Both the position numbers and the translations under genes were made by a program. Of a stretch of DNA of 64,000 bases, positions 507-43,628 are shown piece by piece. The notes below the pieces were generated by a model. It had not been told where the DNA came from. It saw nothing but the letters and a program-made list of their open reading frames with translations, and made no database searches. Each line of letters opens with the position of its first letter. The first letter of the stretch is position 1. The stretch comes from a virus: IMG/VR virus record IMGVR_UViG_3300022744_000001, positions 2,022 through 66,021 of that record; one strand, given 5' to 3'.

Positions 507-583
507 TGGCACCCGCGTAGGGATTCGAACCCCAAACCTCATGGTCCGTAGCCATGTGCTCTATCCAGTTGAGCTACGCGGGC
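507..583 (-). tRNA. tRNA-Arg (anticodon ACG)
   Basis: Reverse complement folds as a 77-nt cloverleaf. Acceptor GCCCGCG/CGCGGGU, D-arm GCUC-AACUGGAUA-GAGC, anticodon arm CAUGG-CUACGGA-CCAUG, T-arm UGGGG-UUCGAAU-CCCUA, encoded GCCA end. Confidence 0.85.
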
Positions 584-589
584 AGAAAA

Positions 590-666
590 TGGCGTCCGCA
601 GGAAGATTCGAACTTCCAACCTTTGGCTTCGTAGGCCACTGCGCTATCCGATTGCGCCATGCGGAC
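590..666 (-). tRNA. tRNA-Arg (anticodon ACG), second copy
   Basis: 77-nt cloverleaf. Acceptor GUCCGCA/UGCGGAC, D-arm GCGC-AAUCGGAUA-GCGC, anticodon loop CUACGAA, T-arm GGAAG-UUCGAAU-CUUCC, GCCA end. Lies 6 nt from the first Arg gene. Confidence 0.8.
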
Positions 667-668
667 AT

Positions 669-744
669 TGGTGGAGAAGAAGGGACTCGAACCCTCAGCC
701 TGTCGCGTGCAAGGCGACTGCTCTTCCAATTGAGCTACTTCCCC
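669..744 (-). tRNA. tRNA-Ala (anticodon UGC)
   Basis: 76 nt. Acceptor GGGGAAG/CUUCUCC includes the G3:U70 alanine identity pair. Anticodon loop CUUGCAC, T-arm GAGGG-UUCGAGU-CCCUU, ACCA end. Confidence 0.9.
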
Positions 745-749
745 AAACT

Positions 750-824
750 TGGCACCCCAGACGGGTTTCGATCCCGCTTGTCCTGCATGAAAGGCAGGCA
801 TCCTAGCCACTAGATGACTGGGGC
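750..824 (-). tRNA. tRNA-Glu (anticodon UUC)
   Basis: 75 nt. The 5' part GCCCCAG-UC-AUC-UAGUGGCUAG-GAU has the bacterial tRNA-Glu architecture. Anticodon arm CCUGC-CUUUCAU-GCAGG, T-loop AUCGAAA, GCCA end. Confidence 0.8.
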
Positions 825-830
825 ATAAAT

Positions 831-907
831 TGGCGTCCCTCCGGGGATTTGAACCCGCGATTTGCAACTTGAGAGGCTGCTGTCCTTGCCAACTAGACGA
901 GAGGGAC
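831..907 (-). tRNA. tRNA-Glu (anticodon CUC), T-stem imperfect
   Basis: 77 nt. Acceptor GUCCCUC/GAGGGAC is perfect, with a Glu-type D region UC-GUC-UAGUUGGCAAGGAC and anticodon arm GCAGC-CUCUCAA-GUUGC. The T-stem gives only 3-4 bp in any register. Confidence 0.6.
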
Positions 908-931
908 AAAATCTGGTGTAACTTCCGGGGC

Positions 932-1261
932 ATGCCTCGCAAGACGCAACCCCCGACCGACCTTGAACGAGCGTTCAAAGCCCAGGTGAAAAACACGCTG
1001 AACGCCCTCATTTTGGGGCGAAACATCAGCCGAAATCAACTCGCCAAACGCATGGGAATCTCGATGTCCCGTCTCACCGAGATGCTGGACATACCCTCGC
1101 TGGGCAACATCTCCCGCATCTGCGAAACTCTGAACGTCGAGCCCCAGATCCGACTCAAGGCCGCGAGCCGCAATCGCCCCCCGCCGAAGCTCGAGGAGGG
1201 GGCCCTCAAAGGACGACCCAAGAATGCGCCACCAGAGGCTGAGGATGAATGTCTCGATTGA
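932..1261 (+). CDS. XRE/Cro-type helix-turn-helix protein
   Basis: 109-aa ORF from ATG 932, just past the tRNA at 831-907. HTH-like segment RNQLAKRMGISMSRLTEMLDIPSLGNISRICETLNV. The track start at 830 would overlap the tRNA. Confidence 0.55.
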   Translation: MPRKTQPPTDLERAFKAQVKNTLNALILGRNISRNQLAKRMGISMSRLTEMLDIPSLGNISRICETLNVEPQIRLKAASRNRPPPKLEEGALKGRPKNAPPEAEDECLD

Positions 1262-1619
1262 GAGGTACCTAGCCGGGTTCGAGCAAACCATCGAACGGCT
1301 CCCCGGCATCCTCGACCGCTGGGAGAGCATCGAAGACATGCTCTGCGGCGAGTACATCGACCAGCTCGAATGGATGCTCGACGTCCGGGAAGACGTCCTC
1401 AACCTCGCCGTGGAGCAAGGCCAGGGCACCCCGGTTCGTGCCCGCATGGACCGAATCAACGCCGGTCTAGGGCGCCTCAGCATCCGGATCAAAGAGGTCA
1501 TGGGCGTCGATGTTCTCGAGACCCTGACTCCAGAGTTGGAGCCCGCAGTGGGAATCGAACCCACAGCCTCCTGTTTACGAAACAGGTGCTCAACCGTTGA
1601 GCTATACGGGCGAAAGTAA
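1245..1619 (+). CDS. hypothetical acidic protein
   Basis: ATG 1245 lies 17 nt upstream of the upstream gene's stop codon, so the two ORFs overlap (...GGATGAATGTCTCGATTGA). 124 aa. The 3' ~80 nt overlap tRNA-Thr on the opposite strand, so the true C-terminus is uncertain. Confidence 0.45.
   Translation: MNVSIERYLAGFEQTIERLPGILDRWESIEDMLCGEYIDQLEWMLDVREDVLNLAVEQGQGTPVRARMDRINAGLGRLSIRIKEVMGVDVLETLTPELEPAVGIEPTASCLRNRCSTVELYGRK
1537..1611 (-). tRNA. tRNA-Thr (anticodon CGU)
   Basis: 75 nt. Acceptor GCCCGUA/UGCGGGC, D-arm GCUC-AACGGUU-GAGC, anticodon arm CCUGU-UUCGUAA-ACAGG, T-arm GUGGG-UUCGAUU-CCCAC, UCCA end. Confidence 0.85.
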
Positions 1620-1641
1620 CAGGGGCACTCGTACCCCTGTT
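1618..1641. terminator. hairpin between convergent genes
   Basis: AACAGGGG-cactcgta-CCCCTGTT, an 8-bp perfect stem between the + ORF ending at 1619 and the - ORF ending at 1646. Confidence 0.4.
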
Positions 1642-1645
1642 GAAA

Positions 1646-2623
1646 TCAGAAGTTGTCCGAAACGACAACCCAGAAGTCGCTGGCCAACTGGGTGTTCTTC
1701 GCGTAGGCGTAGCTCATCCAGAAGTACCCAGCGAGGCCCCAGTTGACGCCCCACGAGTTGCGAACGAGGAATGCACCCGTGGTGCCGTCGGGCATCTTCT
1801 TGGCGTCGTCGTAACCGACGAGCGCGACAGCATGACCGCCCTGCAAGTGTTCCGTGGGACCCGGCAAGCCAAGAAGCGCTTTCTTGGCCATGTCTGCGGT
1901 CATGAAATAATCGTAAACTTGGAACCCAAATCCAACGAGATACCCCATCGCCAACGTGGACTTCATCGTGGCGATGTCCCCGTCCGCGATCGAGTGGTAG
2001 CTCGTGATCAGCTTCGTAGCTGCCTTGGCCCAGAGGTCCGGGGTTGGGTTGACCGTGAACTTCTGGATGTTGTAAGGCCAGCTGGCCTCGTCCAAAATCC
2101 CGTACTTGACTCCGGTCTTGATGGCATCACGAATCGTGGCGCCCGAGTCTTCGTTGACGGTACCTTCGATCTTACGGGTCGCGTAATACTCAAAGAGCCG
2201 CGACACCTGGGTGAACTTCGGGGCGGGAGTCGGGGCCGGGGTCGGCGTGGGAGCCGGAGCCGGGTTGGACACCGCCACGTTGGTCGTGAACGTGACCGAA
2301 CCGTCCGCATTGACCACGACGTTCGAGGTGGTCACCTTGGCGGTAGCCGCGGTAGCTGCCAGCTTCTTCGAAGTCGCCCCGCGGAGGTCGCTGCTCTCGA
2401 TGAGGGCCGCGAACATATTCGCAGTGCAGCTCCCGAGTTCACCTTGGTCCTCGATAGGGCTGCAAATGGGTCGATTGTCGTAAGAGGGTGGGGTAGCAAA
2501 GAAGTTGCCGGACTTGAGACGGTATCCCTCGTCTCGAGCGTCAACAAGCTGCTTCTTCCAACCACCAACATGAACCCTACGAGGGGTCCCGTCCGCATGA
2601 TGTGCAGTCTTGATCATGCACAT
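1646..2623 (-). CDS. papain-family (C1) cysteine peptidase with internal insert
   Basis: 325 aa. Motifs QGELGSCTAN (catalytic Cys), GGHAVALVGYD (His) and VRNSWGVNWGLAGYFW (Asn/Trp block). A ~70-aa insert after the Cys helix ends in PAPAPTPTPAPTPAP. Confidence 0.8.
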   Translation of the reverse strand: MCMIKTAHHADGTPRRVHVGGWKKQLVDARDEGYRLKSGNFFATPPSYDNRPICSPIEDQGELGSCTANMFAALIESSDLRGATSKKLAATAATAKVTTSNVVVNADGSVTFTTNVAVSNPAPAPTPTPAPTPAPKFTQVSRLFEYYATRKIEGTVNEDSGATIRDAIKTGVKYGILDEASWPYNIQKFTVNPTPDLWAKAATKLITSYHSIADGDIATMKSTLAMGYLVGFGFQVYDYFMTADMAKKALLGLPGPTEHLQGGHAVALVGYDDAKKMPDGTTGAFLVRNSWGVNWGLAGYFWMSYAYAKNTQLASDFWVVVSDNF

Positions 2624-2679
2624 ACGCGTGAATAAGAGGGTTAGTTAGCCCGTAAAACTAGCACTTTTGCTAGTCAAAA

Positions 2680-2754
2680 TGGCTCCGAGGGTAGGGGTCG
2701 AACCTACGACCATCCGGTTAACAGCCGGACGCTCTGCCACTGAGCTACCTCGGA
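2680..2754 (-). tRNA. tRNA-Asn (anticodon GUU)
   Basis: 75 nt. Acceptor UCCGAGG/CCUCGGA, D-arm GCUC-AGUGGCA-GAGC, anticodon arm UCCGG-CUGUUAA-CCGGA, T-arm GUAGG-UUCGACC-CCUAC, GCCA end. Confidence 0.9.
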
Positions 2755-2787
2755 ATAGACTCTGTCCCGCAGGACAGGCCGTAAAAA

Positions 2788-3429
2788 CTACCGTGGTTTT
2801 GCAGTGTCACCTTGGATGTAACCCTGCCGGTCAAGCTCTTCCACGGCGAAGTGGTTCTTCCACTTGATGACCAGGTGCTTCTGCCGGAACTCGTCAACGA
2901 CGATCCGATCCGAGAAAATCGTGACGACCGAGTCGTGGTAGCCGGTTCGGTCGAGAACCTCAACTTCCTGACCCTTGCGGTAGACACGAGAGGTCTGGTT
3001 TGACCACTCATACCCAGCAAGCTCGACTTCCTCTGGGCCGAGAAGCTCTTCCAGAGGCGGTTCGGAAGCCGTGACCGAGCTGGCGAACTTGTCGCTCTCT
3101 TTGGCGGAGTCCTCGACCTTCTTTTCGAAGTCGTGAGGGTCCATGGTCCGAATGTCGAACCACAACGACCGTGCGTGATTCAAGTTGTGGCCACCGGCTC
3201 GGCCGGAGCTGTACGAGACGTACACGGCCTGGGCCTTGAACCAAACCCGAATCGTCCCATCCGGAGACGTCGCGTGCGGCACCTTGAGCCCGTCAACCAC
3301 CTTCCAACGCTCCTTCTTCAAGTGCTCGAGGATTTCAGCTCGAGCTTCAAGGAAGGTCTTGCGCTTGGCGGTCTTGTCAGAGAAGGCCGCGGCGACGCGG
3401 AGGGCGATGTCGATGGGGTGGTTGGCCAT
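2788..3429 (-). CDS. hypothetical protein (213 aa)
   Basis: ATG ORF with TAG stop and coding-like composition. No family recognised. Confidence 0.55.
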   Translation of the reverse strand: MANHPIDIALRVAAAFSDKTAKRKTFLEARAEILEHLKKERWKVVDGLKVPHATSPDGTIRVWFKAQAVYVSYSSGRAGGHNLNHARSLWFDIRTMDPHDFEKKVEDSAKESDKFASSVTASEPPLEELLGPEEVELAGYEWSNQTSRVYRKGQEVEVLDRTGYHDSVVTIFSDRIVVDEFRQKHLVIKWKNHFAVEELDRQGYIQGDTAKPR

Positions 3430-3488
3430 GTGTTCCTCTCTCTACGGGCCGCACGAAAAGAGTAGCGCACCGAAGTGCACCCTCGAAA

Positions 3489-3573
3489 TGGCTCCAGGAG
3501 CAGGATTCGAACCTGCGATTGGGTTTCCCCGCGCGGTTAACAGCCGCGTGCACTACCACTATGCGACCCTGGA
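3489..3573 (-). tRNA. tRNA with anticodon GUU (Asn) and a long variable arm
   Basis: 85 nt. Acceptor UCCAGGG/UCCUGGA, D-arm GCAU-AGUGGUA-GUGC, anticodon arm CGCGG-CUGUUAA-CCGCG. The 15-nt variable region CGGGGAAACCCAAUC contains a GGG-AAA-CCC hairpin. T-arm GCAGG-UUCGAAU-CCUGC, GCCA end. Confidence 0.7.
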
Positions 3574-3576
3574 ATA

Positions 3577-3738
3577 GGTGCGCGCGAAGCGCACCGAAAT
3601 AAAATGGGTGGAGGATCCGAGGCCGGGCATCAAAGCACCACGACCGAAGGTTCGAAGCTCTGGCCGCAACACGACGCCAACAGACCTCGGACCCTCCACC
3701 AAGGAAGGCCCCATAAGAGCCTTCCCTCGTTTCTCTTG
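3577..3738 (+). other. structured non-coding segment inside the tRNA cluster
   Basis: Three elements: hairpin GGTGCGC-gcgaa-GCGCACC (3577-3595); a long-range inverted repeat pairing 3607-3622 with 3685-3700 (15 of 16 bp); then GGAAGGC-N9-GCCTTCC followed by CTCGTTTCTCTTG (3703-3738). ORFs in the track here look non-coding. Confidence 0.3.
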
Positions 3739-3951
3739 CCTCAAGCTAGAGTCGTATCGCCCGTCATGTCCCAGCCGCTGGAGCCCCTCAGTATAGTCGA
3801 GGGTCGATCACGCTCTGGCGCTACACGCATGGAGGTACCATGCGCGACGATTCACGCTCTAACCTGTCAGATTTTCAAAGACTTACCCGATGATTTCCAG
3901 CAAGAAGCCCGGAGGCTCGTACCCGAGGGTACCTGTGCACATCGTGTAACT

Positions 3952-4028
3952 TGGTGGGCCTGCGGGGACTCGAACCCCGAACCGTTCGCTTAAGAGGCGA
4001 CTGCACTGACCAGTTGTGCTACAGACCC
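3952..4028 (-). tRNA. tRNA-Lys (anticodon CUU)
   Basis: 77 nt. Acceptor GGGUCUG/CAGGCCC, D-arm GCAC-AACUGGUCA-GUGC, anticodon loop CUCUUAA, T-arm CGGGG-UUCGAGU-CCCCG, ACCA end. Confidence 0.85.
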
Positions 4029-4077
4029 GAAATTCGCTAATCTACGTCTTGGTACCTGTCCGGAGACAAGTGAAACT

Positions 4078-4152
4078 TGGTGAGGCCAGAGAGACTTGAA
4101 CTCTCAACCGTCGGGTTAAAAGCCCGCTGCACTACCATTGTGCTATGACCTC
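4078..4152 (-). tRNA. tRNA-Lys (anticodon UUU)
   Basis: 75 nt. Acceptor GAGGUCA/UGGCCUC, D-arm GCAC-AAUGGUA-GUGC, anticodon arm GCGGG-CUUUUAA-CCCGA, T-arm GAGAG-UUCAAGU-CUCUC, ACCA end. Confidence 0.85.
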
Positions 4153-4154
4153 AT

Positions 4155-4242
4155 TGGTGGAGGATGATGGAGTCGAACCACTCAGCCTTAATGACGCCTC
4201 GTTTACAGCGAGACCTGCCTCCCGGGGCACACGTCACCCTCC
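4155..4242 (-). tRNA. tRNA-Tyr (anticodon GUA), class II
   Basis: 88 nt. Acceptor GGAGGGU/AUCCUCC, anticodon arm UCUCG-CUGUAAA-CGAGG, long variable arm as in bacterial tRNA-Tyr, T-loop UUCGACU, ACCA end. Confidence 0.75.
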
Positions 4243-6510: not shown

Positions 6511-6903
6511 ATGTGGTACGGAAGATACGACGACAGCGACCTGGCCCCGGCTCTCCCCAAACCGTGCGCCTGCGACAACGGGCCACCTTCCATCCCGCCC
6601 GACGTCGCCATGGCTCTCTGGGCCGGAAACGACGAACCCTCCATGACCATCTGGGCGCAACCCGATCCCTACGAAGGGCAGTGGCACACGGGACACCCAC
6701 GCGCGGAGTACCTATTCCTTCCCACGGCCTCCAAGGAGGAAAAGGAACTCGAGCAAGCCATCTTCAATGCCTTAGACGCGGGGCTCGATGCCATGTTCCT
6801 ACTGAAAGCGACCCAGGACGTCGTCCAGAAGTGGGCAAGGGCTCACGTCATAAAGGGCGAGCGCCTTGCCGACTGGGAACGTCACGTCAGCTCGGATCAG
6901 TAG
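6511..6903 (+). CDS. hypothetical protein (130 aa)
   Basis: ATG ORF with TAG stop. No family recognised. Preferred over the overlapping 389-aa frame at 6513..7682. Confidence 0.5.
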   Translation: MWYGRYDDSDLAPALPKPCACDNGPPSIPPDVAMALWAGNDEPSMTIWAQPDPYEGQWHTGHPRAEYLFLPTASKEEKELEQAIFNALDAGLDAMFLLKATQDVVQKWARAHVIKGERLADWERHVSSDQ

Positions 6904-7241
6904 GGGTCTCGAGGGCAGGGGATTCCGCGCTCCACCCGATCCTTGAGGAACTCTTCGTGGGCCGCGTCCATCTCCTCTGGGGCAAGCGGAGCGCCGAACT
7001 CCCCGCCGTCCATGAGGTCGCGGATCGACATCTTTTCGATCATCATGTCCTCGACGCAGAACATGCCGTAGACCTTTTCCCCGTTCTCGACCATGTAGAC
7101 CTGAACGTAGAGATGCGGGTAGCCGTCCTTGTCGATGACAAGCTGCCAACGCCCGTCCGCAGGTCGAATGACCCCTTGAGCCTGGGGGTCTTCTTCGAAA
7201 CGACTGATCTTGATATCTTGCAGCATGGGGGACTCCTTCAC
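6897..7241 (-). CDS. hypothetical protein (114 aa)
   Basis: ATG ORF convergent with 6511..6903. Coding-like composition. The start could instead be the internal MLQDIK. Confidence 0.5.
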   Translation of the reverse strand: MKESPMLQDIKISRFEEDPQAQGVIRPADGRWQLVIDKDGYPHLYVQVYMVENGEKVYGMFCVEDMMIEKMSIRDLMDGGEFGAPLAPEEMDAAHEEFLKDRVERGIPCPRDPY

Positions 7242-7349
7242 GACCCAACACCGGGTCCGTTAGGGCCGGAGGTCATCCCCCTCACGGCTGTTCATCTACA
7301 AAGTACACCACCTGAACCGGTACCTCAACCCATTTGGTGTCAGAAAAGC

Positions 7350-7682
7350 ATGGCGTGGCTCGGCCCCCGATCGGGCATCCAGTGGTATGTGTACCTTCTC
7401 CGCTCCGAGAAGATCCCCCACCTCTACACGGGCATCACCACCGACCCTGAACGACGCCTGGCCCGCCACAACAACGGCACAGGGGCGAAGTTCACTCGCG
7501 GCCGAGGCCCGTGGTCCATCGCCTACCTCGAGCCCACCATGGACCACCGGGACGCCCTCCGCCGCGAGCGCGAAATCAAAGGCTGGAGCCGAGCCGAGAA
7601 GCTCGAGCTGATCAAGCGACCTTCCGCCGACCCTGTTTCGGCCTCTGCGCCACCGGTGCGACAACGTTCTCGAACTCGGTAA
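7350..7682 (+). CDS. GIY-YIG nuclease superfamily protein (UPF0213/URI-like)
   Basis: WYVYLLRSEKIPHLYTGITTDPERRLARHNNGTGAKFTRGRGPW...ALRREREIKGWSRAEK. The last ~70 nt overlap the convergent helicase ORF. Confidence 0.75.
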   Translation: MAWLGPRSGIQWYVYLLRSEKIPHLYTGITTDPERRLARHNNGTGAKFTRGRGPWSIAYLEPTMDHRDALRREREIKGWSRAEKLELIKRPSADPVSASAPPVRQRSRTR

Positions 7683-10600
7683 GCATGCTGTACAGCTGCT
7701 TCCCGATGCTGAGCCCCACAAGGTAGTTGTCCTCCCCAACGCCCGCCGCTTGAAGAGCCGACTCAGGATCAAGGCCATCCGTGGACACGGACACCGCGAC
7801 CTTTTGCATGAGCAGGTCGTACAGCTGCTCTTGCAGGGTTCCCGCATAGACGGGGAACAAGAGGCGCGTTTCCTTGTCCTGCCCGATGCGGTCAATACGC
7901 CCGCCCGCCTGGCGGAAAATCACCGGGTTGCAAGCAGGGTTCTCCATCCAAATTTCCGTGGAAAAATGGACAAGATTGTTGAGGCCCGTTTGAATGGCCA
8001 CCGGGTTCACGACCAGGATGCGGCGCTTTTTCTTGACGATCTCCCTCGTGATCCAGTCCTGGCGCTTGGCCGTGGGAACCTTGTCCGCGTGCAGGATCGG
8101 GGCCTTTTCCTCCGTGTACTTCTCGAGGAGGGCCGACAGGCGCGGCAACAGGTTCGTGTGCCACGAAAAGACCATCACGTTCCGACCCTCGGCCAGCTCA
8201 TCCAGCACGCGGTCAACGAGCCACTGTTCCTTCGCAAGAAGGGTGTCCCTCGAGAACGGGGCTTGCGACGTGACCAGGTCGCCGCCGACCGACTCCGGAT
8301 AGCGGATCTCGAAATCGCCGCTCTCCACGTTGCCCGTGTCACTGGTCGCCCGGTCCAAGTAGCTCGGAAGCTCGGCAAGCTGCCCAAAGAGCTTGCCCGA
8401 CAGGTCTTCCTTGAAGCGGTCCCGCTTGATACGGTTGACAAGGGCCGTCTGCAACGCCGTGTAGCGCTTGGCCAGCTCTTCACCCGGAGCGACCAGATGC
8501 TTTTCCAGGGTGCACTTGGGCAGATCGATCGCTAGGTCGCTCTTGTGCAACGTGACCGAGATGGGCAAAAGGTGCCGGAGCAGGAAGAGCGGAAGGATGC
8601 CCGGAGCGTCCCCAATCATGCGCTCCGAGCGCTGGACACGATCCGAGTTCGAGCCAAATTCAATGACTTCCCCCTTCTCATCCTTGTCCTGCAAAAGGCG
8701 CTTGCGGTAGCCGTACCGGTCCACGAAGACCGAGCTATCGTCACGGCTGAACTCTTCACGGAATGCGGGCGAAAGAGCCCACATATTCATGAACAGGGAC
8801 TTGGCGTAGCCGTTCATGATCGAGCCGGTTTGAAGGATCGTGGGGATGCCGAGAGACGTCAACCGGTGAGCGGAGATCTCCTGTGCCGAGCCCTCCGTGG
8901 CGTACTCGTGCCCTTCATCGAGCACCAAGAAGTCGAACAGGTCTGGGTAGCGTTCCTTGATGTGTTGAGCCAACGCAACACGGCGAGGCTCCGGAACCGC
9001 CTGATAGAGGTGCTCCCCGCACTCTTCCGACGTCTCGAACCGCGCCACCAAGGCGGCCGAGCGGAGCGCGTTGATCCCCGTGGTCAACCCGTTGCCACGG
9101 CTCCCGTGAACACGAAGCTCCCCGCCGAACCACGAGACCACGACCGAGCCCACCAAGACTTGCTCGTTCTCTTTGGTCACCCGTTCCGCGTTGTTCTTGA
9201 GCACCTGGACCGGAGACCACGACGAGTGCGCGTGCGGGTAAGCCTTAGCCACCTCCGCAAAAGCCGCCGCCTGAACCGGACCCCCCGGAGGCAGGAGCAA
9301 GAGAAGGTCCCGAGCGAAGCTCGAGTACGCCCCGTGACTATCCACCGGGCCCAGCTCCCGCCAAACGCTCACGATCTGCTCAGGAGTCCCGGCCGCGGCG
9401 AGCGCATGGGCCAAAGCCGACTTGACCGCGTCCCCCTGGTGTTCCTTGTACGCCTCGACCAGGAGGCCGATCATATCGTCCAGCTCCCCCGCCTTGAAGC
9501 CAGAGAACACGGGAGGCTTGACCCCATCCTTGAGCTTGGATTCGTAGTGGGTGAGAAACTTCTGGCTCATCCGCTCAGACAAGATCGAGGTCAGGGTGCC
9601 GCTAGTAGGCTTGTGCTTAGCCAGCCGAATCGCCCACTTCTGAACGAGCCGAGCAAGCTCGTTTGCGGAGGTCACCGCCCCGTGCTTGCACCGGGCCCGC
9701 TTTTTGGCCAGGTCCACGACGGGCGTCGTGTGGCCGCACTTGGGGCAACGACCGTTACCCACACCTTCCCAGCCGTGCGAGAGCTTGGCTGTCTCACGCG
9801 AAAGGATGGCGATCACCATCCGGTCACTCGTGTTGGTCGCGACCGCTTCGATGTCCGAAACCGAGGACAGAACCCGAACCTCAGCCTCGGGCACCACCAC
9901 CGCGATCTCGTCCGCCCACGACTTGAGCAAGTGCGGAGGACACATCACAAGGAGCCGACGAACGCCAACCGTCTTGGCTGTCATCAGGGCGACCGTGGTC
10001 TTGCCCGAGCCGATCTCGCCGAGCAGGATTGCACCCTTGCCCTTGCGCTGGGCTCGAGTCGCATTGAGGCCGCCCAGGAGCTTGACCAAAGCGCGCGAGG
10101 CATGGGCCTGGGCCGTGAACAGCTTGCGGGGCGACGAAGCGAGCGGGATGGAGGCCGCATCCCGACGAGGGTCGTACAGGATCGGGCACTGCCGTTCCAT
10201 GACGCCCATGAGAGACTTGCCGTAGTGCTTGAGCAGGTCTGCCACAGTCATGGTTTCGACTGCGACTTTCCCCTTGGTCTCCGACCCCGAACCCAACACG
10301 TGGTACTTGTGGGTTTCCATGTCGAGCACGGTCACAACCAGCTTGGGCTGTTGAACCTGCACAACGCCGACCACATCGCCATCCTTGTTGGTCTTTTCCT
10401 CGACCGTACGGTACTCACGATCAAAGACGCCCTTGACGAGCAGAGGCGGGAGGACCCCGGGCACGTCCGGATCGATACGCGACCCGTTGAAGAGCCCCGA
10501 CGCGATACCAGCCGCGATGTGGGCCGGGCGCGGGGGCGTCGCCACTGGGTAGCGGCGCAAAAGCAGGTCCTGGACAGGTAGAGCCGGAAGGACACCCGAC

Positions 10601-11412
10601 ACCGGGATCTTCTGGCCGCCACGGCTCGTCTGAGTCCAAGGGCGAGCCTTGCTCAGGAGCGTGGTCAGGTCCACGGGCCGGATCTGCCAGCTACCAAGCC
10701 CCGTCTCGTAGTATTCGCCCGTCGGCAGGGTGTACAAGGGCGCGGAGCCCTCTTCTGGCAGCTCCGGAATGCTCGAGGCATCCGCCGCCCAGCCTTGAAC
10801 CTGGGTCACGATGGCCGCGTCAGGCGTAGCAATTGGGTCGCACTTGCGGGCAACCAACACGACTTGCTTGAACCCCTCGAAATCAGCCCCGGGGAACCGG
10901 AAACACTGGACGTTGACGAACTCCCGCCCCAGAAGCTCCACCGAGGCGGCAAGGGCGTAGAAGGGTACAACGAACATGAGCACGCCGCCCGTGGCCAGGA
11001 CGGCCGCAAAGCGGGCCAGGAAACGATGCTCGAGGCGACCATGCACCCGGTCAGTGTCATAGGGCGGGTTCAGGTAGAGAAGCCCGATTCCCTTGCGGCG
11101 GTCGAAATCCCACACAACGCGGAAAGCATCGCCATGGAGGGCGTTTTGACCCGATGTGTAGCTGAACCGAGACAGGTTGGCTTTGGCCGCCGCCGCTCGG
11201 ATCGCTTCCATCTCGCAGACGTACACTTCACTGCTTGCAGCCTGGAGGTGCTCTTTGATGGCCAGGATCGCCGCCGCGTCGCCCGCACAAGGGTCAGCGA
11301 ACGATGTCCGCGCCTCTTTCCCCACCGGCGAGAGAAGGCCCGCGATACGCGGAAGAAGATGGGTCGGGGTTGGGTAATACCCCGCGACTGCTATGGATTC
11401 AGGGCGTGCCAT
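7612..11412 (-). CDS. N6-adenine DNA methyltransferase fused to SNF2-family helicase
   Basis: 1266 aa. The N-terminus has AdoMet motif FADPCAGDAAAIL followed by catalytic LNPPYD. The C-terminal part has GEIGSGKTTVAL (Walker A), LVLDEGHEY (motif II) and QAGGRIDRIGQ (motif VI). A CPKCGH...C zinc ribbon lies between. Confidence 0.85.
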   Translation of the reverse strand: MARPESIAVAGYYPTPTHLLPRIAGLLSPVGKEARTSFADPCAGDAAAILAIKEHLQAASSEVYVCEMEAIRAAAAKANLSRFSYTSGQNALHGDAFRVVWDFDRRKGIGLLYLNPPYDTDRVHGRLEHRFLARFAAVLATGGVLMFVVPFYALAASVELLGREFVNVQCFRFPGADFEGFKQVVLVARKCDPIATPDAAIVTQVQGWAADASSIPELPEEGSAPLYTLPTGEYYETGLGSWQIRPVDLTTLLSKARPWTQTSRGGQKIPVSGVLPALPVQDLLLRRYPVATPPRPAHIAAGIASGLFNGSRIDPDVPGVLPPLLVKGVFDREYRTVEEKTNKDGDVVGVVQVQQPKLVVTVLDMETHKYHVLGSGSETKGKVAVETMTVADLLKHYGKSLMGVMERQCPILYDPRRDAASIPLASSPRKLFTAQAHASRALVKLLGGLNATRAQRKGKGAILLGEIGSGKTTVALMTAKTVGVRRLLVMCPPHLLKSWADEIAVVVPEAEVRVLSSVSDIEAVATNTSDRMVIAILSRETAKLSHGWEGVGNGRCPKCGHTTPVVDLAKKRARCKHGAVTSANELARLVQKWAIRLAKHKPTSGTLTSILSERMSQKFLTHYESKLKDGVKPPVFSGFKAGELDDMIGLLVEAYKEHQGDAVKSALAHALAAAGTPEQIVSVWRELGPVDSHGAYSSFARDLLLLLPPGGPVQAAAFAEVAKAYPHAHSSWSPVQVLKNNAERVTKENEQVLVGSVVVSWFGGELRVHGSRGNGLTTGINALRSAALVARFETSEECGEHLYQAVPEPRRVALAQHIKERYPDLFDFLVLDEGHEYATEGSAQEISAHRLTSLGIPTILQTGSIMNGYAKSLFMNMWALSPAFREEFSRDDSSVFVDRYGYRKRLLQDKDEKGEVIEFGSNSDRVQRSERMIGDAPGILPLFLLRHLLPISVTLHKSDLAIDLPKCTLEKHLVAPGEELAKRYTALQTALVNRIKRDRFKEDLSGKLFGQLAELPSYLDRATSDTGNVESGDFEIRYPESVGGDLVTSQAPFSRDTLLAKEQWLVDRVLDELAEGRNVMVFSWHTNLLPRLSALLEKYTEEKAPILHADKVPTAKRQDWITREIVKKKRRILVVNPVAIQTGLNNLVHFSTEIWMENPACNPVIFRQAGGRIDRIGQDKETRLLFPVYAGTLQEQLYDLLMQKVAVSVSTDGLDPESALQAAGVGEDNYLVGLSIGKQLYSMLTEFENVVAPVAQRPKQGRRKVA

Positions 11413-30874: not shown

Positions 30875-31156
30875 ATGCATGCAGGGGAAGCAAATCCGGT
30901 AGGTCGTGAACCGGCCATTGAGCGGGCGATACGCTTCTCCTTTGGCAGGGATGGCTCTCGCGCACAAGCAGCACTCCCAAGGCTTTTTGGTGATGGTCCG
31001 GGCCCAGAGGACTCGGACAGTGCAGCCCTCGACGGTCAGGTTGGAGAGGTAGGAGGTCCCGGGGAGGAACTCCTTCTTGTTCGTGATTGAGACCACAGAG
31101 TAGGTTTGGCACAGAACCGGTGTCAGTGTCACCGATGCGTGATGCCCCCGCCCCAC
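30857..31156 (-). CDS. hypothetical Cys-rich protein (start uncertain)
   Basis: 99-aa ORF containing CCLCARAIP...CFPCMH. Its N-terminal ~20 nt overlap the divergent ARH gene, so an internal start is possible. Confidence 0.35.
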   Translation of the reverse strand: MGRGHHASVTLTPVLCQTYSVVSITNKKEFLPGTSYLSNLTVEGCTVRVLWARTITKKPWECCLCARAIPAKGEAYRPLNGRFTTYRICFPCMHKDESG

Positions 31157-32049
31157 TTCTTGGTCAAGCCATCGCTGATGCCCTGGGTATGCCGTTCGAG
31201 TTGTGTGGTCCCGAAGATCCCAAGTTGAAGGACTGGGATGGGCAGACCTACCACTCGAGCGAGTACCACAAGCTCATGCCAGGGCAGTGGTCCGACGACA
31301 CGATGATGGCCAAGCTCCTGGCCGAAAGCCTTCTCCAGGTGGGCGGGTATGACCCGGAGAACGCAGCCAAACGCTACCTGGGTTGGTACAAGAGCGGGGA
31401 CCACCGGGGGATGGGGACGGCGACCAGGACCGCCCTCGGTCGCCTGGACGAGGGCAAGGATTGGTCGGAGTCCGGAGTCGAGAACGCCCAGGGGAACGGG
31501 ACCGCCATGAGGGCGATCCCTCTCGGGGTTTTCTTCCGGAACCGTCTCGACCTCCTCGTCGAGGCTGCAAGCTTGGACTCTCACATCACCCATCGGTCGG
31601 ACGAGGCTGAGGAGGGGGCGATCGCAATCGCCCTGGCTGCCGCATACCTCTACCGTGGCCTCCCGAAGGATGAGCTTCCAGAGGCTATCTCGAGGCGGCT
31701 CAAAGACGGCCCCATCAAGACCGGAGTCATGAAGTGCGAGTTCTACCTTCGCACCGGCGGAGTCTCGGTTGGGGAAGCACTCCGAGTCATTGGCACGAAA
31801 CCCCACGTGGTCCAGACCGTGCCCGCTGCCCTGGCCGCGTTCCTTTTGTCCAAGACCTACCTGGAGGCTGTCCAAGCTGCGATTCGGGCCGGGGGCGATA
31901 CGGACACCACAGCCGCCATCGCCGGTGGCCTGGCGGGCATCTACTACGGTCGCCAAGCCATCCCCGCGGACCTCATCCCTCCGCTCGAGGCCGCAGACGC
32001 CCTCAGTGGGCTCGACTTCCAACTCAACACCCCTGCCCGTGAACTCTGA
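31135..32049 (+). CDS. ADP-ribosylglycohydrolase (DraG/ARH family)
   Basis: GQAIADALGMPFE, QWSDDTMM, GNGTAMRAIPLG and GGDTDTTAAIAGGLAG blocks. ATG 31135 chosen within the track ORF that starts at 31087. Confidence 0.85.
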   Translation: MRDAPAPLLGQAIADALGMPFELCGPEDPKLKDWDGQTYHSSEYHKLMPGQWSDDTMMAKLLAESLLQVGGYDPENAAKRYLGWYKSGDHRGMGTATRTALGRLDEGKDWSESGVENAQGNGTAMRAIPLGVFFRNRLDLLVEAASLDSHITHRSDEAEEGAIAIALAAAYLYRGLPKDELPEAISRRLKDGPIKTGVMKCEFYLRTGGVSVGEALRVIGTKPHVVQTVPAALAAFLLSKTYLEAVQAAIRAGGDTDTTAAIAGGLAGIYYGRQAIPADLIPPLEAADALSGLDFQLNTPAREL

Positions 32050-33051: not shown

Positions 33052-33729
33052 GTGGACAGTAGCGCAGAAGAGTTTGAGCAGATAGTGCGCGAGAGTTTAT
33101 CCGCTGCACAAGCCCTACGAAAACTGGACCGGGCTACCGTGGGGTCCAACTACGACTGGGTGCGTCGGGAGGTTCAACGGTTTGGGCTCGACACATCTCA
33201 CTGGGGAAGAGCTGGTGCTCGCAATACAACCCCGAACCTCGATGAGGTTTTCATTGAGAATGGTGCCTACTCAACAGGTCTTGTTAAGACGATCATTCTT
33301 CGTGAACGTTTACTCCCGGAGCTGTGTGCTGAGTGTGGATTAGGACCCTCCTGGAGGGGTAAGAAATTAGTCCTCCGCCTTGACCACAAAAACGGGAAAC
33401 GAAGTGATCACCGGCTCGGAAACTTGCGTTTTCTGTGTCCGAACTGCGACTCTCAAACAGAGACATTTTGCGGTCGCAACAAACGTCTCCCAGCCAAGCT
33501 GTGTAAATGCGGGGTGGCAATAGGGCAGCAGTCCGCAGCTTGCAGGTCGTGCACGGCAAAAAGCAGAAAACCAACAACGAAAATCGTTTGGCCTCCATTC
33601 GAGGAAGTGCAGGAAAGGGTCAAAAACACCTCCTTCCTTGCCACAGCCAAACATCTTGGTGTATCAGATAATGCAGTTCGGAAGTTTTTACGCTCCCGTG
33701 CCCGAGTGGTTGAAGGGGCAGGATTCTAA
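33052..33729 (+). CDS. HNH homing-endonuclease-like protein
   Basis: LRLDHKNGKRSDHRLGNLRFLCPNCDSQ is an HNH core. N-terminal ...GLDTSHWGR and C-terminal LGVSDNAVRKFL are HTH-like. Visibly lower GC than the flanks. The last 38 nt overlap the tRNA. Confidence 0.75.
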   Translation: MDSSAEEFEQIVRESLSAAQALRKLDRATVGSNYDWVRREVQRFGLDTSHWGRAGARNTTPNLDEVFIENGAYSTGLVKTIILRERLLPELCAECGLGPSWRGKKLVLRLDHKNGKRSDHRLGNLRFLCPNCDSQTETFCGRNKRLPAKLCKCGVAIGQQSAACRSCTAKSRKPTTKIVWPPFEEVQERVKNTSFLATAKHLGVSDNAVRKFLRSRARVVEGAGF

Positions 33730-33783
33730 ATCCTTGGGGCCGCAAGGCCCACGCCGCAGGTTCGAACCCTGCCGGGAGCGCCA
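33692..33783 (+). tRNA. suppressor tRNA, anticodon CUA (reads UAG), serine-type architecture
   Basis: 92 nt: GCUCCCG-UG-CCC-GAGUGGUUGAA-GGG-G-CAGGA-UUCUAAA-UCCUU-[20-nt variable arm G-GGGCC-GCAA-GGCCC-ACGCC]-GCAGG-UUCGAAC-CCUGC-CGGGAGC-G-CCA. The acceptor and T stems pair perfectly. Confidence 0.8.
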
Positions 33784-41840: not shown

Positions 41841-41989
41841 ACAGCCCTTTGTTCAAGCACTCCGCGAAATACTGCACTCACTGCCAGAAAAACTCGAGGG
41901 AGCAGGTTCACTACCAGCGAGGCTTCAACAAGGGTGTGCACTGGCAATGCAAGATCTGTGGGAGAAAGTCCGTGCGTTGCTCTAAGTGA
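41837..41989 (+). CDS. small zinc-ribbon protein (50 aa)
   Basis: ATGA overlap with the upstream gene. CTHCQ...CKICG. Confidence 0.45.
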   Translation: MNSPLFKHSAKYCTHCQKNSREQVHYQRGFNKGVHWQCKICGRKSVRCSK

Positions 41990-43628
41990 ATCGGTGCCCG
42001 CCGGACTCCTTGGAGTCGTACATGGCGGCATCCGCGATCCGTACAAGGCTCTCAGGCTCACGCCCGTGCGTTGGGAACAAGGCCAGACCGATGCTGGCGC
42101 GAACCCCAACCTCTTCTCCGGAGGGCAGCTCGATAGGCTCCCCTACCAAGTTGAGGATCTTCGTCGCCACTGGGCCTGCATCGCCTTCTTGCGCAAGGTC
42201 GTCCAGCACAACGACGTACTCGTCGCCCCCTAGTCTGGCCACGACGTCGGTTCTTCGCACGCAAGCTCGGAGCCGGGCCGCGACCTCCTTGAGCACGATG
42301 TCTCCAGCGTCATGGCCGTGAGTGTCATTGACCTCTTTGAAGCCGTCGAGGTCGATGAACAGGACTGCGAGCTTGCTGTCGTACTGCTCTGCTCGAGCGA
42401 GCTTCGAAGCCAACGTGTTCATCAGCGTCGCCCGGTTCTGGAGCCCCGTGAGCGGGTCAGTATGGGCTGCTTTGATGAGGGCTGCCTCGGTCCTCTTTCG
42501 CTCAGTTACGTCACGGGCCACAACATAGAGCTTCCCCTCCACGTGAGCAGGGAAGTGCCAGGAGAGCCATCGCCACGTCCCATCTTTGCACCGGGCCCTG
42601 CACTCGAACTTCACCCCGTCGTAACCGCTGGCGAGCTTTGAGAGCTGCTCCTGCATGTCCATCCGGTCATCCGGGTGGAGCAGGTCGAAGATGGGGCGGC
42701 AAAGCAGCTCGTCCTCGGAGAAGCCCAGGACGCGAGTGAACGAGGGGTTCACTCGGATGAAGTAGCCGTCAAGCCGTGCGACACAGATGAGGTCAAGGCT
42801 CACGGTGAAGAGTCGATCGCGCTCTTCCTCGGCTCGTTTGCGGTCCGTGACGTCGGTGGCGGCCCAAAGGTAGCCAACGAGGTCTCCGGTGTCTTCTCGC
42901 ATGACCACCGTCTTCGCGCTGACCCAGAGAATGGATCCGTCGGGCCGAAGAAATCGGAACTCATGCTCGAACGAGAGGCCGAGGTCTGTGAGCCGCCGCC
43001 ACGCCATCATGACCGCTCGTCGGTCGTCTGGGTGCACAGCTCGAGTCCAGCCTTGCCCGTAGCACTCCTCGAGAGACAGGCCGCACATCTCCGACCAGGT
43101 TCGGTTCACAAACCCGCACCGGCCATGCTCGTTGGTCATGAGGGTGCCCGCGGGGGTCTCGTGGATGAACGCTCGGAGCTTGCTCTCGCTCTCGCGAAGG
43201 GCCCGCTCCATGTTCTTGGTGGCAGAGATGTCCCGGAAGGTGAGTAGAGCCCCGTGCGGTTTCTGCCCAGGCTTCTGAAGCGGGCGCGTGTTCGTGCTGA
43301 CCCAAACGGCAGTCCCATTCGGGCGAGCAACCTCCAGCACAACACTCGAGAGGGCGATGCCCGTGCGCAGGGACACTACGGCCGGGTGGTCATCCTTCGA
43401 AAGGAGAGACCCGTCCTCGCATGAAATACGAGGCGCATCGGACATATACTTTCCGATCAGGTCCTTCTCTGTAACCCCGAGGATCCGGGCCGCACAAGGG
43501 TTCGCCTCAACGATCTGTTCGGTTGCATCGATGACGAAGACCCCCTCCTCCATTGATTCGATCAAGGAGCGGTAGAATGCCTCATCTAACTGCAATCCCG
43601 CACTTTTGGTTACGTCTGAGTTCGGCAT
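41982..43628 (-). CDS. PAS-PAS-PAS-GGDEF diguanylate cyclase
   Basis: 548 aa. Three PAS-like repeats, each ending in a ...DVT(D/E)RK-type linker. The GGDEF domain has LFIDLDGFKEVNDTHGH, the active site RLGGDEYVV, and an RxxD (RRTD) 5 residues upstream. Confidence 0.85.
   Translation of the reverse strand: MPNSDVTKSAGLQLDEAFYRSLIESMEEGVFVIDATEQIVEANPCAARILGVTEKDLIGKYMSDAPRISCEDGSLLSKDDHPAVVSLRTGIALSSVVLEVARPNGTAVWVSTNTRPLQKPGQKPHGALLTFRDISATKNMERALRESESKLRAFIHETPAGTLMTNEHGRCGFVNRTWSEMCGLSLEECYGQGWTRAVHPDDRRAVMMAWRRLTDLGLSFEHEFRFLRPDGSILWVSAKTVVMREDTGDLVGYLWAATDVTDRKRAEEERDRLFTVSLDLICVARLDGYFIRVNPSFTRVLGFSEDELLCRPIFDLLHPDDRMDMQEQLSKLASGYDGVKFECRARCKDGTWRWLSWHFPAHVEGKLYVVARDVTERKRTEAALIKAAHTDPLTGLQNRATLMNTLASKLARAEQYDSKLAVLFIDLDGFKEVNDTHGHDAGDIVLKEVAARLRACVRRTDVVARLGGDEYVVVLDDLAQEGDAGPVATKILNLVGEPIELPSGEEVGVRASIGLALFPTHGREPESLVRIADAAMYDSKESGGHRFT

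Follow-up and report, generated by a model that had tools for sequence, protein, structure and literature searches.

The window analysed here, a stretch of 64,000 nucleotides (nt) from the IMG/VR virus record IMGVR_UViG_3300022744_000001, encodes a tRNA-Asn with the anticodon GUU and a long variable arm (3489-3573, minus strand). The gene is a member of a large, nearly phage-only class of long-arm tRNA-Asn genes. Comparison within this class indicates that the extra arm is a structure under selection, and the tRNA probably still carries Asn. The best explanation overall, with a rough probability of 0.55, is a functional Asn-charged phage elongator that belongs to a mobile long-arm lineage and keeps its arm for a role at the RNA level.

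According to the textbook rule, long variable arms are found only in the tRNAs for Leu, Ser, bacterial Tyr, and Sec. The initial annotation of the gene relied on this rule, which stands for cells but fails in phages, where long-arm tRNA-Asn is widespread: phiKZ and most T5-like phages have a tRNA-Asn of class II shape.

The long-arm gene and its class

ARAGORN reports the gene as tRNA-Asn(gtt) of 85 nt, including the encoded CCA. The RNA is UCCAGGG-UC-GCAU-AGUGGUA-GUGC-A-CGCGG-CUGUUAA-CCGCG-CGGGGAAACCCAAUC-GCAGG-UUCGAAU-CCUGC-UCCUGGA-G-CCA. Its parts and its class I counterpart in the window are:

3567-3573 / 3493-3499 (minus strand): acceptor stem with U1:A72 and C2:G71, seen by ARAGORN, by Rfam, and in the minimum free energy (MFE) fold
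3489-3491 (minus strand): encoded CCA, with G73 at 3492
3539..3541 (minus strand): anticodon GUU, in the loop CUGUUAA (3537-3543) on a stem of 5 base pairs (bp), CGCGG/CCGCG (3544-3548 / 3532-3536)
3517..3531 (minus strand): 15-nt variable region CGGGGAAACCCAAUC with the hairpin GGG-GAAA-CCC (3521-3530), seen by ARAGORN, in the fold, and in family covariation
Linkers of this hairpin: 1 nt on the 5' side; 4 nt on the 3' side, ending in C48, for which a Levitt pair with G15 is possible
2680..2754 (minus strand): class I tRNA-Asn(GUU) paralogue of 75 nt, with a 5-nt variable loop UGGUC, U1:A72, G73, and CCA; 735 nt from the long-arm gene

Both ARAGORN and ViennaRNA give a 7-bp acceptor stem and a 5-bp T-stem, and the D-arm is of class I type, with a 4-bp stem and the 7-nt loop AGUGGUA. 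While class I architecture has a variable loop of 4-5 nt, the 15-nt region here holds a helix, which ARAGORN draws as a 3-bp stem with a GAAA loop between linkers of 1 nt (5') and 4 nt (3'). The resulting five-armed cloverleaf is both the MFE and the centroid fold (-34 kcal/mol, z = -2.1; ViennaRNA). All stems are perfect, and the T-loop, G18G19 of the D-loop, U8, A14, A21, the CUGUUAA loop, and CCA are intact. The initial annotation had described the gene in the same way (85 nt, U1:A72, G73, anticodon arm, T-arm, a 15-nt variable region with a GGG/CCC hairpin, and a conventional 75-nt gene nearby), and ARAGORN, Rfam, and ViennaRNA agree with it. It had also allowed that the extra nucleotides are an artefact of alignment or that the gene scores as a pseudogene. 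Neither is the case. The Rfam tRNA model (RF00005) aligns every helix and places about 11 extra nt as an insertion in the variable region, and the pairs of the stem covary in the family. The score is 55.1 bits with a gathering threshold of 29, and the other ten members of the array score between 45 and 71 bits.

Many homologous long-arm GUU tRNAs, for which the annotation had proposed a search, are found in other phages. In phiKZ the sole tRNA-Asn (PHIKZ_t02) is such a gene, with the variable region GGC-GAAA-GCC-CACC, U1:A72, and G73, and it is kept in phiKZ relatives. Escherichia phage 4MG also has a long-arm gene as its only tRNA-Asn, and its relatives GAP31 (Cronobacter), EC152, and VIK251 have the gene as well. 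Another carrier is the Synechococcus phage (cyanophage) S-CBWM1. About 280 records of T5-like and some T4-like phages have in common an 83-nt long-arm allele, GUC-GAAA-GAC-AAC (e.g., Bas32 IrisVonRoten, SP15, and T5_ev212, which are T5-like, and the T4-like Serratia phage CHI14). As in phiKZ and 4MG, this gene is the only phage Asn tRNA in the T5-like phages carrying it. All of these genes are annotated in databases as plain 'tRNA-Asn'. The kind itself is thus already deposited in hundreds of phage genomes, uncharacterised. No description of the class, its extra arm, or its linkage to endonucleases was found in the searchable full-text literature, which leaves out older papers on T5 tRNA genes, where prior notice is possible.

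In IMG/VR, the pattern of CTGTTAA, 19-35 nt, and GGTTCGAATCC, in which the gap of a class I gene is about 13 nt, is found at at least 119 loci (L001-L119), and ARAGORN reports a GUU tRNA of 80-94 nt in at least 109 of them. When both architectures are admitted (gap of 10-35 nt), 10 of the 120 matches listed are long-armed and 110 have a gap of 12-14 nt. About 8% (roughly 1 in 12) of the sampled viral GUU tRNAs with this T-loop are therefore long-armed. Note that both scans demanded the exact anticodon loop and T-arm, so that the conservation of these motifs is by construction and the counts are lower bounds. The class is defined by GUU with G73, 7/5 acceptor/T helices, a place in a tRNA array of a phage or phage-like genome, and a variable region of 11-17 nt with a stem of 3-4 bp, a tetraloop (mostly GNRA), and a 3' linker of 3-4 nt. 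The window gene has GUU and G73, 7/5 acceptor/T helices, a 3-bp stem, GAAA, and a 4-nt linker.

Long-arm genes are scarce in cellular sequence. The coliphage-type gene is found in none of 5,426 complete E. coli genomes. Among the 120 matches listed from cellular assemblies, about 11 are genuine long-arm cases, in arrays of 3-23 tRNAs on contigs of metagenome-assembled genomes (MAGs). Cellular genomes were considered as a source of the class and rejected: most of their pattern matches are tRNA-Ser(GCU) (cyanobacterial), 3' ends of transfer-messenger RNA, intron-containing archaeal tRNA-Asn, or a tRNA-like 3' half in Verrucomicrobia.

This 3' half is a separate observation. In Verrucomicrobiota MAGs, a CUGUUAA-like loop, a hairpin, a T-arm, the 3' strand of the acceptor stem, and GCCA follow one another with no recognisable 5' half. 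Sometimes two or three tandem copies are found, 325-435 nt apart (L136, 3874-3911 and 4198-4235; L216, 5129-5166 and 5457-5494; L232, 2570, 3005, and 3440; further loci are L156, L182, L192, L196, L217, and L171). They could be remnants of att sites or the ends of repeated RNAs.

Within the class, the closest sequences to the window gene are long-arm genes of other viral contigs (82% for L053, the best match, and 80% for L111), and the gene is not close to any isolate. At core positions, with the arm and the D-loop excluded, the nearest neighbour of a long-arm gene is another long-arm gene in 75% of cases, where chance would give 42% and permutations reach 61% at most. This clustering points to a limited set of old lineages and not to a recent local accident. 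The two Asn genes of the window have the same immediate flanks, CUAU upstream and UUU(U/C)GA downstream (2674-2758 and 3483-3577; repeat families D2 and D5), and are about 77% identical outside the variable region, which suggests that they are local paralogues. The two Lys genes have CCAAGUUNCAC downstream in common (3944-4133; repeat families D1, D2, and D5 cover the Lys and Asn pairs). Same-isotype pairs with common flanks imply that the array has grown by local duplication. The earlier view of the long-arm gene as a diverged duplicate agrees with the probable paralogy. As a one-off event it does not hold, since the lineage is old and widespread in phages.

Related huge phages maintain the pair of short and long Asn genes. 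The 309-kb viral contig L053 has a class I and a long-arm Asn gene side by side, beside Tyr and Lys genes, and a class I Asn gene is also present within the fetched flanks of 32 of 110 long-arm loci. In L053 (600-800, minus strand), the GUU tRNA of class I length has U37 for A37 (loop CUGUUUA), and another sequence resembling a GUU tRNA lies between both Asn genes; its D region is oversized, and ARAGORN does not report it. A search of the phage collection for close relatives of the window gave no DNA or protein match to the region or to the 1000-residue open reading frame (ORF). An origin from tRNA-Tyr(GUA) or tRNA-Ser(GCU) by one anticodon base finds no support for the window gene, whose acceptor and D-arm are Asn- and class I-like. 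Such an origin is possible for the sublineages with G1:C72. The best E. coli match of the 4MG gene is a tRNA-Tyr, and one tRNA-Ser(GCU) gene is 78% identical to a long-arm tRNA-Asn.

Selection on the arm is indicated by its pairing. A stem of at least 3 bp is present in 93% of 104 unique long-arm members, versus 61% of shuffled variable regions, and these sequences use 56 different stem strands with stereotyped linkers, which in most cases have 1 nt (5') and 3-4 nt (3'). When 34 related long-arm GUU tRNAs are aligned with MAFFT, covariation at the three core pairs of the arm is as strong as in the anticodon stem. Pair 49-60 is GC in 21 members, AU in 6, UA in 5, and GU in 2, and is never unpaired; pair 50-59 is AU in 13, GC in 13, UA in 3, and CG in 2; pair 51-58 is GC in 12, CG in 10, AU in 5, and UA in 1. 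None of 500 shuffles and no slid control reaches this covariation, and purifying selection with compensatory change is found in every helix of the family. Note that the 34 members were picked because ARAGORN drew a stem, which is a bias; the figure of 93% is free of it. The tetraloop is GNRA in 44 of 53 cases. This cap is not special to the Asn arm, as was considered, since it is equally common in the variable arms of phage tRNA-Ser (35/43) and tRNA-Leu (29/48) and rare in those of tRNA-Tyr (1/29).

The same mini-arm is found in other class I isotypes of the viral loci: Cys(GCA) (14/43, 33%), Thr(UGU) (12/56, 21%), Met(CAU) (14/79, 18%), Ile (12/79, 15%), Lys (5/78), and Asp (4/64; ~6% for the last two). 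In Gly, Arg, Gln, and Ala genes it is hardly ever seen. Example loci are L012 (414-499), L013, L038, L042, L006, L023, and L003.

Amino acid identity and the role of the arm

In bacteria, Asn identity resides in the three anticodon bases and G73 and can be transplanted to another tRNA body, while amidation by GatCAB needs U1:A72 and is blocked by G1:C72 and U20a (PMC9976931). The window tRNA has GUU, G73, and U1:A72 and no extra D-loop nucleotide of the U20a type. Most long-arm GUU tRNAs of the viral loci have G73 (103/117). At 1:72, U-A and G-C occur in them in proportions that match those of class I phage Asn tRNAs. With U1:A72/C2:G71/G73, the window gene belongs to the largest acceptor subclass (29 of 104 long-arm genes). 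By the established identity rules, the tRNA is thus very probably charged with Asn and decodes AAY, a possibility that the initial annotation had raised. Charging would proceed through the anticodon and G73 by asparaginyl-tRNA synthetase (AsnRS), or by a non-discriminating aspartyl-tRNA synthetase (ND-AspRS) and then GatCAB through U1:A72. The arm would leave the amino acid identity unchanged.

The annotation had also offered mischarging with recoding. In such a case the arm would recruit SerRS (or TyrRS or LeuRS), and AAC and AAU would be read as Ser (or Tyr or Leu). SerRS does ignore the anticodon and reads chiefly the size of the extra arm, and tRNA-Ser shares G73 (PMC9976931). A Ser-like acceptor (G1:C72/G2:C71/G73) is present in 10 of the 104 long-arm genes, there is a precedent in nematode nev-tRNAs (PMC3333845), with allo-tRNAs likewise cited as a parallel, and a tRNA with the anticodon CUA is also encoded in the window. 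However, bacterial tRNA-Ser almost always has G1:C72 and G2:C71, and the C2:G71 of the window tRNA is an antideterminant for SerRS (PMC9976931). None of 72 phage tRNA-Ser genes has U1:A72, and 67 have G2:C71. Their arms in the same loci are mostly 4-7 bp with a 1-nt 3' linker (72-108 genes), while the window arm has 3 bp and 4 nt. LeuRS and TyrRS both require A73, with G73 as an antideterminant (PMC9976931); A73 is found in all 47 phage Tyr genes and in 53 of 55 Leu genes. The 7/5 helices differ from the 8/4, 9/3, 8/5, or 9/4 helices of allo-tRNAs and tRNA-Sec. In the window, AAC is the preferred Asn codon, and no signature of an altered code or recoding is seen: TAG, TGA, and TAA all end long frames (TAG, 28 of 73). 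Stop-codon recoding, an idea suggested by the CUA tRNA, was rejected on this ground. With Asn identity kept and the Ser, Leu, and Tyr elements missing or blocked, an Asn elongator is most likely, and a recoding or mistranslating tRNA is highly improbable.

The CUA tRNA is a gene of 92 nt (33692-33783, plus strand) that ARAGORN labels 'Pyl' and the Rfam tRNA model scores at 52 bits. It has a long variable arm, GGGCC-GCAA-GGCCC with a 5-nt linker, and G73, G1:C72, and C2:G71. From its sequence it looks like a class II amber-suppressor tRNA.

The gene might instead yield a non-translational tRNA-like RNA, such as a decoy that soaks up a nuclease, or be a decaying pseudogene left by duplication. 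A sound class I Asn gene is close by, an aberrant Tyr gene stands in the same array, and the authors of the AriB study suggest overexpressed viral tRNAs as competitive inhibitors (PMC12409363). Such an RNA or relic is improbable, though somewhat less so than a recoder, given the perfect stems, the conserved tRNA nucleotides, the potential G15:C48 pair and CCA, a score similar to those of neighbouring genes, and purifying selection with compensatory changes throughout the helices of the family. A long-arm gene is also the sole Asn tRNA in several phages, which speaks for a translational function.

The surroundings of long-arm genes indicate mobility. When 4,981 ORFs of the viral loci are clustered blind to tRNA type, the dominant family is an endonuclease with helix-turn-helix (HTH) and HNH domains (110 ORFs in 78 loci), which includes phiKZ gp296. 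A downstream HNH ORF, starting at most 250 nt downstream on the same strand, is found after dereplication beside:

Long-arm Asn genes: 14/97 (14.4%)
Other long-arm class I genes: 11/99 (11.1%)
Short class I genes: 53/1266 (4.2%)
Class I Asn genes: 4/96
True class II genes: 17/327

Permutation within loci, which controls for clade effects, gives 31 downstream HNH ORFs observed vs 19.4 expected (p=0.0012) and 11 upstream vs 20.0 expected. The adjacency of homing endonucleases to long-arm genes is thus about 1.6-3 times the expectation. Directly downstream of the long-arm Asn gene stand gp296 (HNH) in phiKZ and a homing endonuclease in S-CBWM1. In two viral loci, L030 and L330, more than 20 tRNA genes are arranged in the same order, and several are near-identical. 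In the Asn slot, L330 has a class I gene, and L030 has an HNH homing-endonuclease ORF and an unrelated long-arm Asn gene. The Cys-Asn-Asp locus of T5-like phages is polymorphic in a similar way. The class I allele there has 78 nt and is found in ~134 records, reference T5 among them; the long-arm allele has 83 nt and is found in ~280. The two alleles are unrelated in sequence. In T5, an ORF with a T5orf172/MUG113 domain (T5.069) overlaps the class I allele, and the long-arm allele is without that ORF. Such replacements show that long-arm genes move as cassettes. The T5-like loci compared are L362 (phage T5, NC_005859; 5953-6525) and L359, L361, L363, and L364; the T5 annotation also lists a 'tRNA amidotransferase' (T5.081) near the tRNA region.

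These linkages allow another explanation, in which the tRNA functions as any tRNA-Asn and the arm acts at the DNA level, as a 10-nt insertion that blocks cleavage by a homing endonuclease, or only hitch-hikes on cassettes. Genes for tRNA-Asn would be preferred targets and landing sites of free-standing homing endonucleases, and selection would merely keep the insertion folded and harmless. The downstream excess of HNH ORFs, the endonucleases on the 3' side in phiKZ and S-CBWM1, and the two cases of allele replacement favour it. It is also reported that SegB of T4 prefers a site within the T2L gene for tRNA-Asn and that homing replaces ~1.25 kb (PMC2330249). The 27-bp SegB site, however, spans the T-arm to CCA (GGTTCRANTCC to CCAR) and leaves out the variable loop, so that a site including the loop is ruled out. 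For about 85% of long-arm Asn genes no endonuclease gene is adjacent, the majority of endonuclease ORFs come after ordinary short tRNAs, and the T5orf172 ORF of T5 is linked to the class I allele. Beside the window gene, no endonuclease is detectable among the neighbour ORFs by domain, homologue, or fold searches. Pure hitch-hiking fails to explain why loss of the arm is rare across very distant phages. A purely DNA-level role of the arm or mere hitch-hiking is considered rather unlikely, though it is the strongest competing explanation.

Ranked above it is escape from host enzymes directed at tRNA, the leading proposal for why the arm is kept, although a tentative one at less than even odds. 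The variable region is the one place where a tRNA tolerates extra nucleotides, and the short class II-like arm sits there. The helix would project from the junction of the anticodon stem and D-arm with the variable region and give the tRNA another shape. The same surface may be gripped by anti-phage tRNases with cut sites in the anticodon arm, and the phage copy would then be a poor substrate. Host and class I Asn tRNAs would still be susceptible, and the infecting phage would retain a tRNA that decodes Asn codons. Host modification enzymes are the alternative enzymes that the arm may evade. It is reported that AriB of PARIS cuts at 40/41 with the second monomer placed on the D-loop, that its targets are Lys(UUU), Thr(UGU), Asn(GUU), and Thr(CGU), and that phage tRNAs rescue infection (PMC12409363). 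A bacterial Schlafen cleaves at 30/31 (PMC13056530). The AriB-target isotypes Lys, Thr(CGU), and Asn are all present in the window array.

Several points weigh against an RNA-level role of the arm in an Asn elongator. Class II synthetases reach the tRNA from the side of the variable loop, where the arm could hinder AsnRS. The AriB-type motif U36AAUC is present in 50% of long-arm and 42% of class I phage Asn tRNAs; the difference is not significant, and the idea that long-arm genes retain the motif more often was dropped. The preference for GNRA is generic to phage Ser and Leu arms and hence no pointer to a special interaction. The linkage to homing endonucleases is not what an RNA-level role predicts. 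Finally, the 'T5 tRNA-Asn' used in experiments is probably the class I gene of reference T5 (78 nt), the long-arm allele being in other T5-like phages, so that the PARIS data are silent on the arm and do not count as a prior test of it.

A wider and more doubtful possibility is that phages in general add a short class II-like arm to class I tRNAs (Asn above all, and Thr(UGU), Met, Ile, Cys, and Lys) as a strategy. The arm would then label phage tRNAs or their genes as 'not host' and protect them from tRNases or homing endonucleases that read class I shape. If this were true, it would be an escape route distinct from point mutations of the anticodon loop, and the split into class I and class II would not be fixed by isotype in the virosphere. 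T5-like phages segregate class I and long-arm alleles at one locus in the tractable E. coli system where PARIS has been studied. Their alleles are open to tests of the role of the arm, tolerance by AsnRS and GatCAB, evasion of tRNases, and shuffling of tRNA genes by endonucleases. For annotation pipelines, a mismatch of body and anticodon in a phage tRNA need not signal a pseudogene or a recoder.

The tRNA array and its genome

The long-arm gene is one of eleven tRNA genes in an array. The features around it are:

507..4242 (minus strand): tRNA array of 11 genes, every one encoding CCA: two Arg(ACG), Ala, two Glu, Thr(CGU), Asn, long-arm Asn, Lys(CUU), Lys(UUU), and an aberrant Tyr(GUA)
3464..3481 (minus strand): terminator-like hairpin GGUGCAC-UUCG-GUGCGCU and U-rich tract, 8 nt past the CCA of the long-arm gene; a consensus match only
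3577..3595 (minus strand): 7-bp G+C-rich hairpin GGUGCGC / GCGCACC, ending 3 nt before the 5' end of the long-arm tRNA; a possible element of processing or termination
2788..3429 (minus strand): ORF of 213 residues between both Asn genes; its start lies 60 nt downstream of the long-arm gene, of which it is no more than a neighbour

The hairpins on the two sides of the long-arm gene have the 10-mer GCGCACCGAA in common (plus strand, 3465-3474 and 3589-3598). The 213-residue ORF has no Pfam or PHROG match. Its eight remote homologues have only the N-terminal domain in common, and none of them adjoins tRNAs. In an AlphaFold2 (AF2) model the N-terminal domain is confident, with no fold match in PDB. 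A role as partner enzyme or homing endonuclease was dropped for these reasons.

The aberrant Tyr(GUA) gene (4155-4242, minus strand) falls under the Rfam tRNA threshold and has a weak match to tRNA-Sec (28 bits). In its fold the acceptor stem has 9 bp (GGAGGGUGA/UCAUCCUCC) and the T-stem 4 bp, and these 9/4 helices are like those of tRNA-Sec or allo-tRNAs; it has A73 and CCA. About 3.8 kb from the long-arm tRNA, the C-terminal part of the ORF 6513-7682 (~7380-7680, plus strand; REIKGWSRAEKLELI) resembles, by eye only, a small nuclease domain of GIY-YIG (URI) type. This stretch overlaps the 3' end of an opposite-strand ORF of 1266 residues (7612-11412).

The window lies within a metagenomic contig of 448,224 bp (ENA ERZ27252002 k141_47206) with ~60% G+C and mostly ORFans. 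Genes identified include DNA methylases, a methyltransferase-helicase fusion, NUDIX, ADP-ribosylglycohydrolase, phosphoesterase, a papain-like protease, and a PAS-GGDEF cyclase. Three of them are unusual cargo for a putative huge phage: the triple-PAS GGDEF diguanylate cyclase (41982-43628, minus strand), the papain-family (C1) cysteine protease inside the tRNA array (1646-2623, minus strand), and the ADP-ribosylglycohydrolase (31087-32049, plus strand). No structural genes were identified within the window. The genome fits a huge phage, or a giant element of a similar kind, and its phage nature is inferred.

Comparison with known systems

The nearest counterparts are the long-arm Asn genes of phiKZ, T5-like phages, CHI14, 4MG, GAP31, and S-CBWM1. 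Like the window gene, they have GUU in a YUGUUAA loop, G73, and 7/5 acceptor/T helices, and they stand in phage tRNA arrays. Their variable regions are also alike, with 12-17 nt, a stem of 3-5 bp, a GNRA cap, and 2-4 unpaired nt before the T-stem (GGC-GAAA-GCC-CACC in phiKZ, GUC-GAAA-GAC-AAC in T5-like phages, and C-GGG-GAAA-CCC-AAUC in the window). The D-arm is of class I type in the window, S-CBWM1, L030, and L055, while in phiKZ and 4MG it is of class II type (3-4 bp and a loop of 9-11 nt). The window genome differs from phiKZ and 4MG in that it keeps a class I Asn copy too.

With the canonical class I tRNA-Asn of bacteria, the window tRNA shares G34 U35 U36, G73, U1:A72, A37 after U36, and a compact D-loop. 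It differs in its 15-nt variable region with a helix, where the canonical tRNA has 4-5 unpaired nt. The class II tRNAs for Ser, Leu, and Tyr also have an extra helix in the variable region, and the GNRA cap is as in phage Ser and Leu tRNAs. However, the Ser stem has 4-7 bp vs 3 in the window, and the 3' linker is 1 nt in Ser and 2 nt in Leu vs 4 nt. The window tRNA has neither G1:C72/G2:C71 of Ser nor A73 of Leu and Tyr.

Nematode nev-tRNAs (PMC3333845) and allo-tRNAs (PMC5389517) are likewise tRNAs in which a long variable arm goes with an anticodon that does not belong to Leu, Ser, or Tyr. Their body is reported to have Leu or Ser identity against the anticodon, while body and anticodon of the window tRNA agree on Asn. 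Allo-tRNAs have 8/4 or 9/3 helices (PMC5389517), and the window tRNA has 7/5, with the arm as the sole addition. Streptomyces coelicolor has type I and type II tRNA-Leu, i.e., short-loop and long-arm forms of one isotype in one genome, and a single LeuRS is reported to charge both (PMC6614811). This case is the reverse of the present one, since it is a short-loop version of a long-arm isotype and is cellular, not mobile.

Altered phage copies of the Lys, Thr, and Asn targets of nucleases are known from the tRNA-Lys of T5 against PARIS AriB (PMC12409363) and from anticodon-loop variants (PMC10264068). The documented escapes from tRNases are point substitutions in the anticodon stem and loop or at U16 (PMC12409363, PMC10264068), while the feature of the window tRNA is an added arm.

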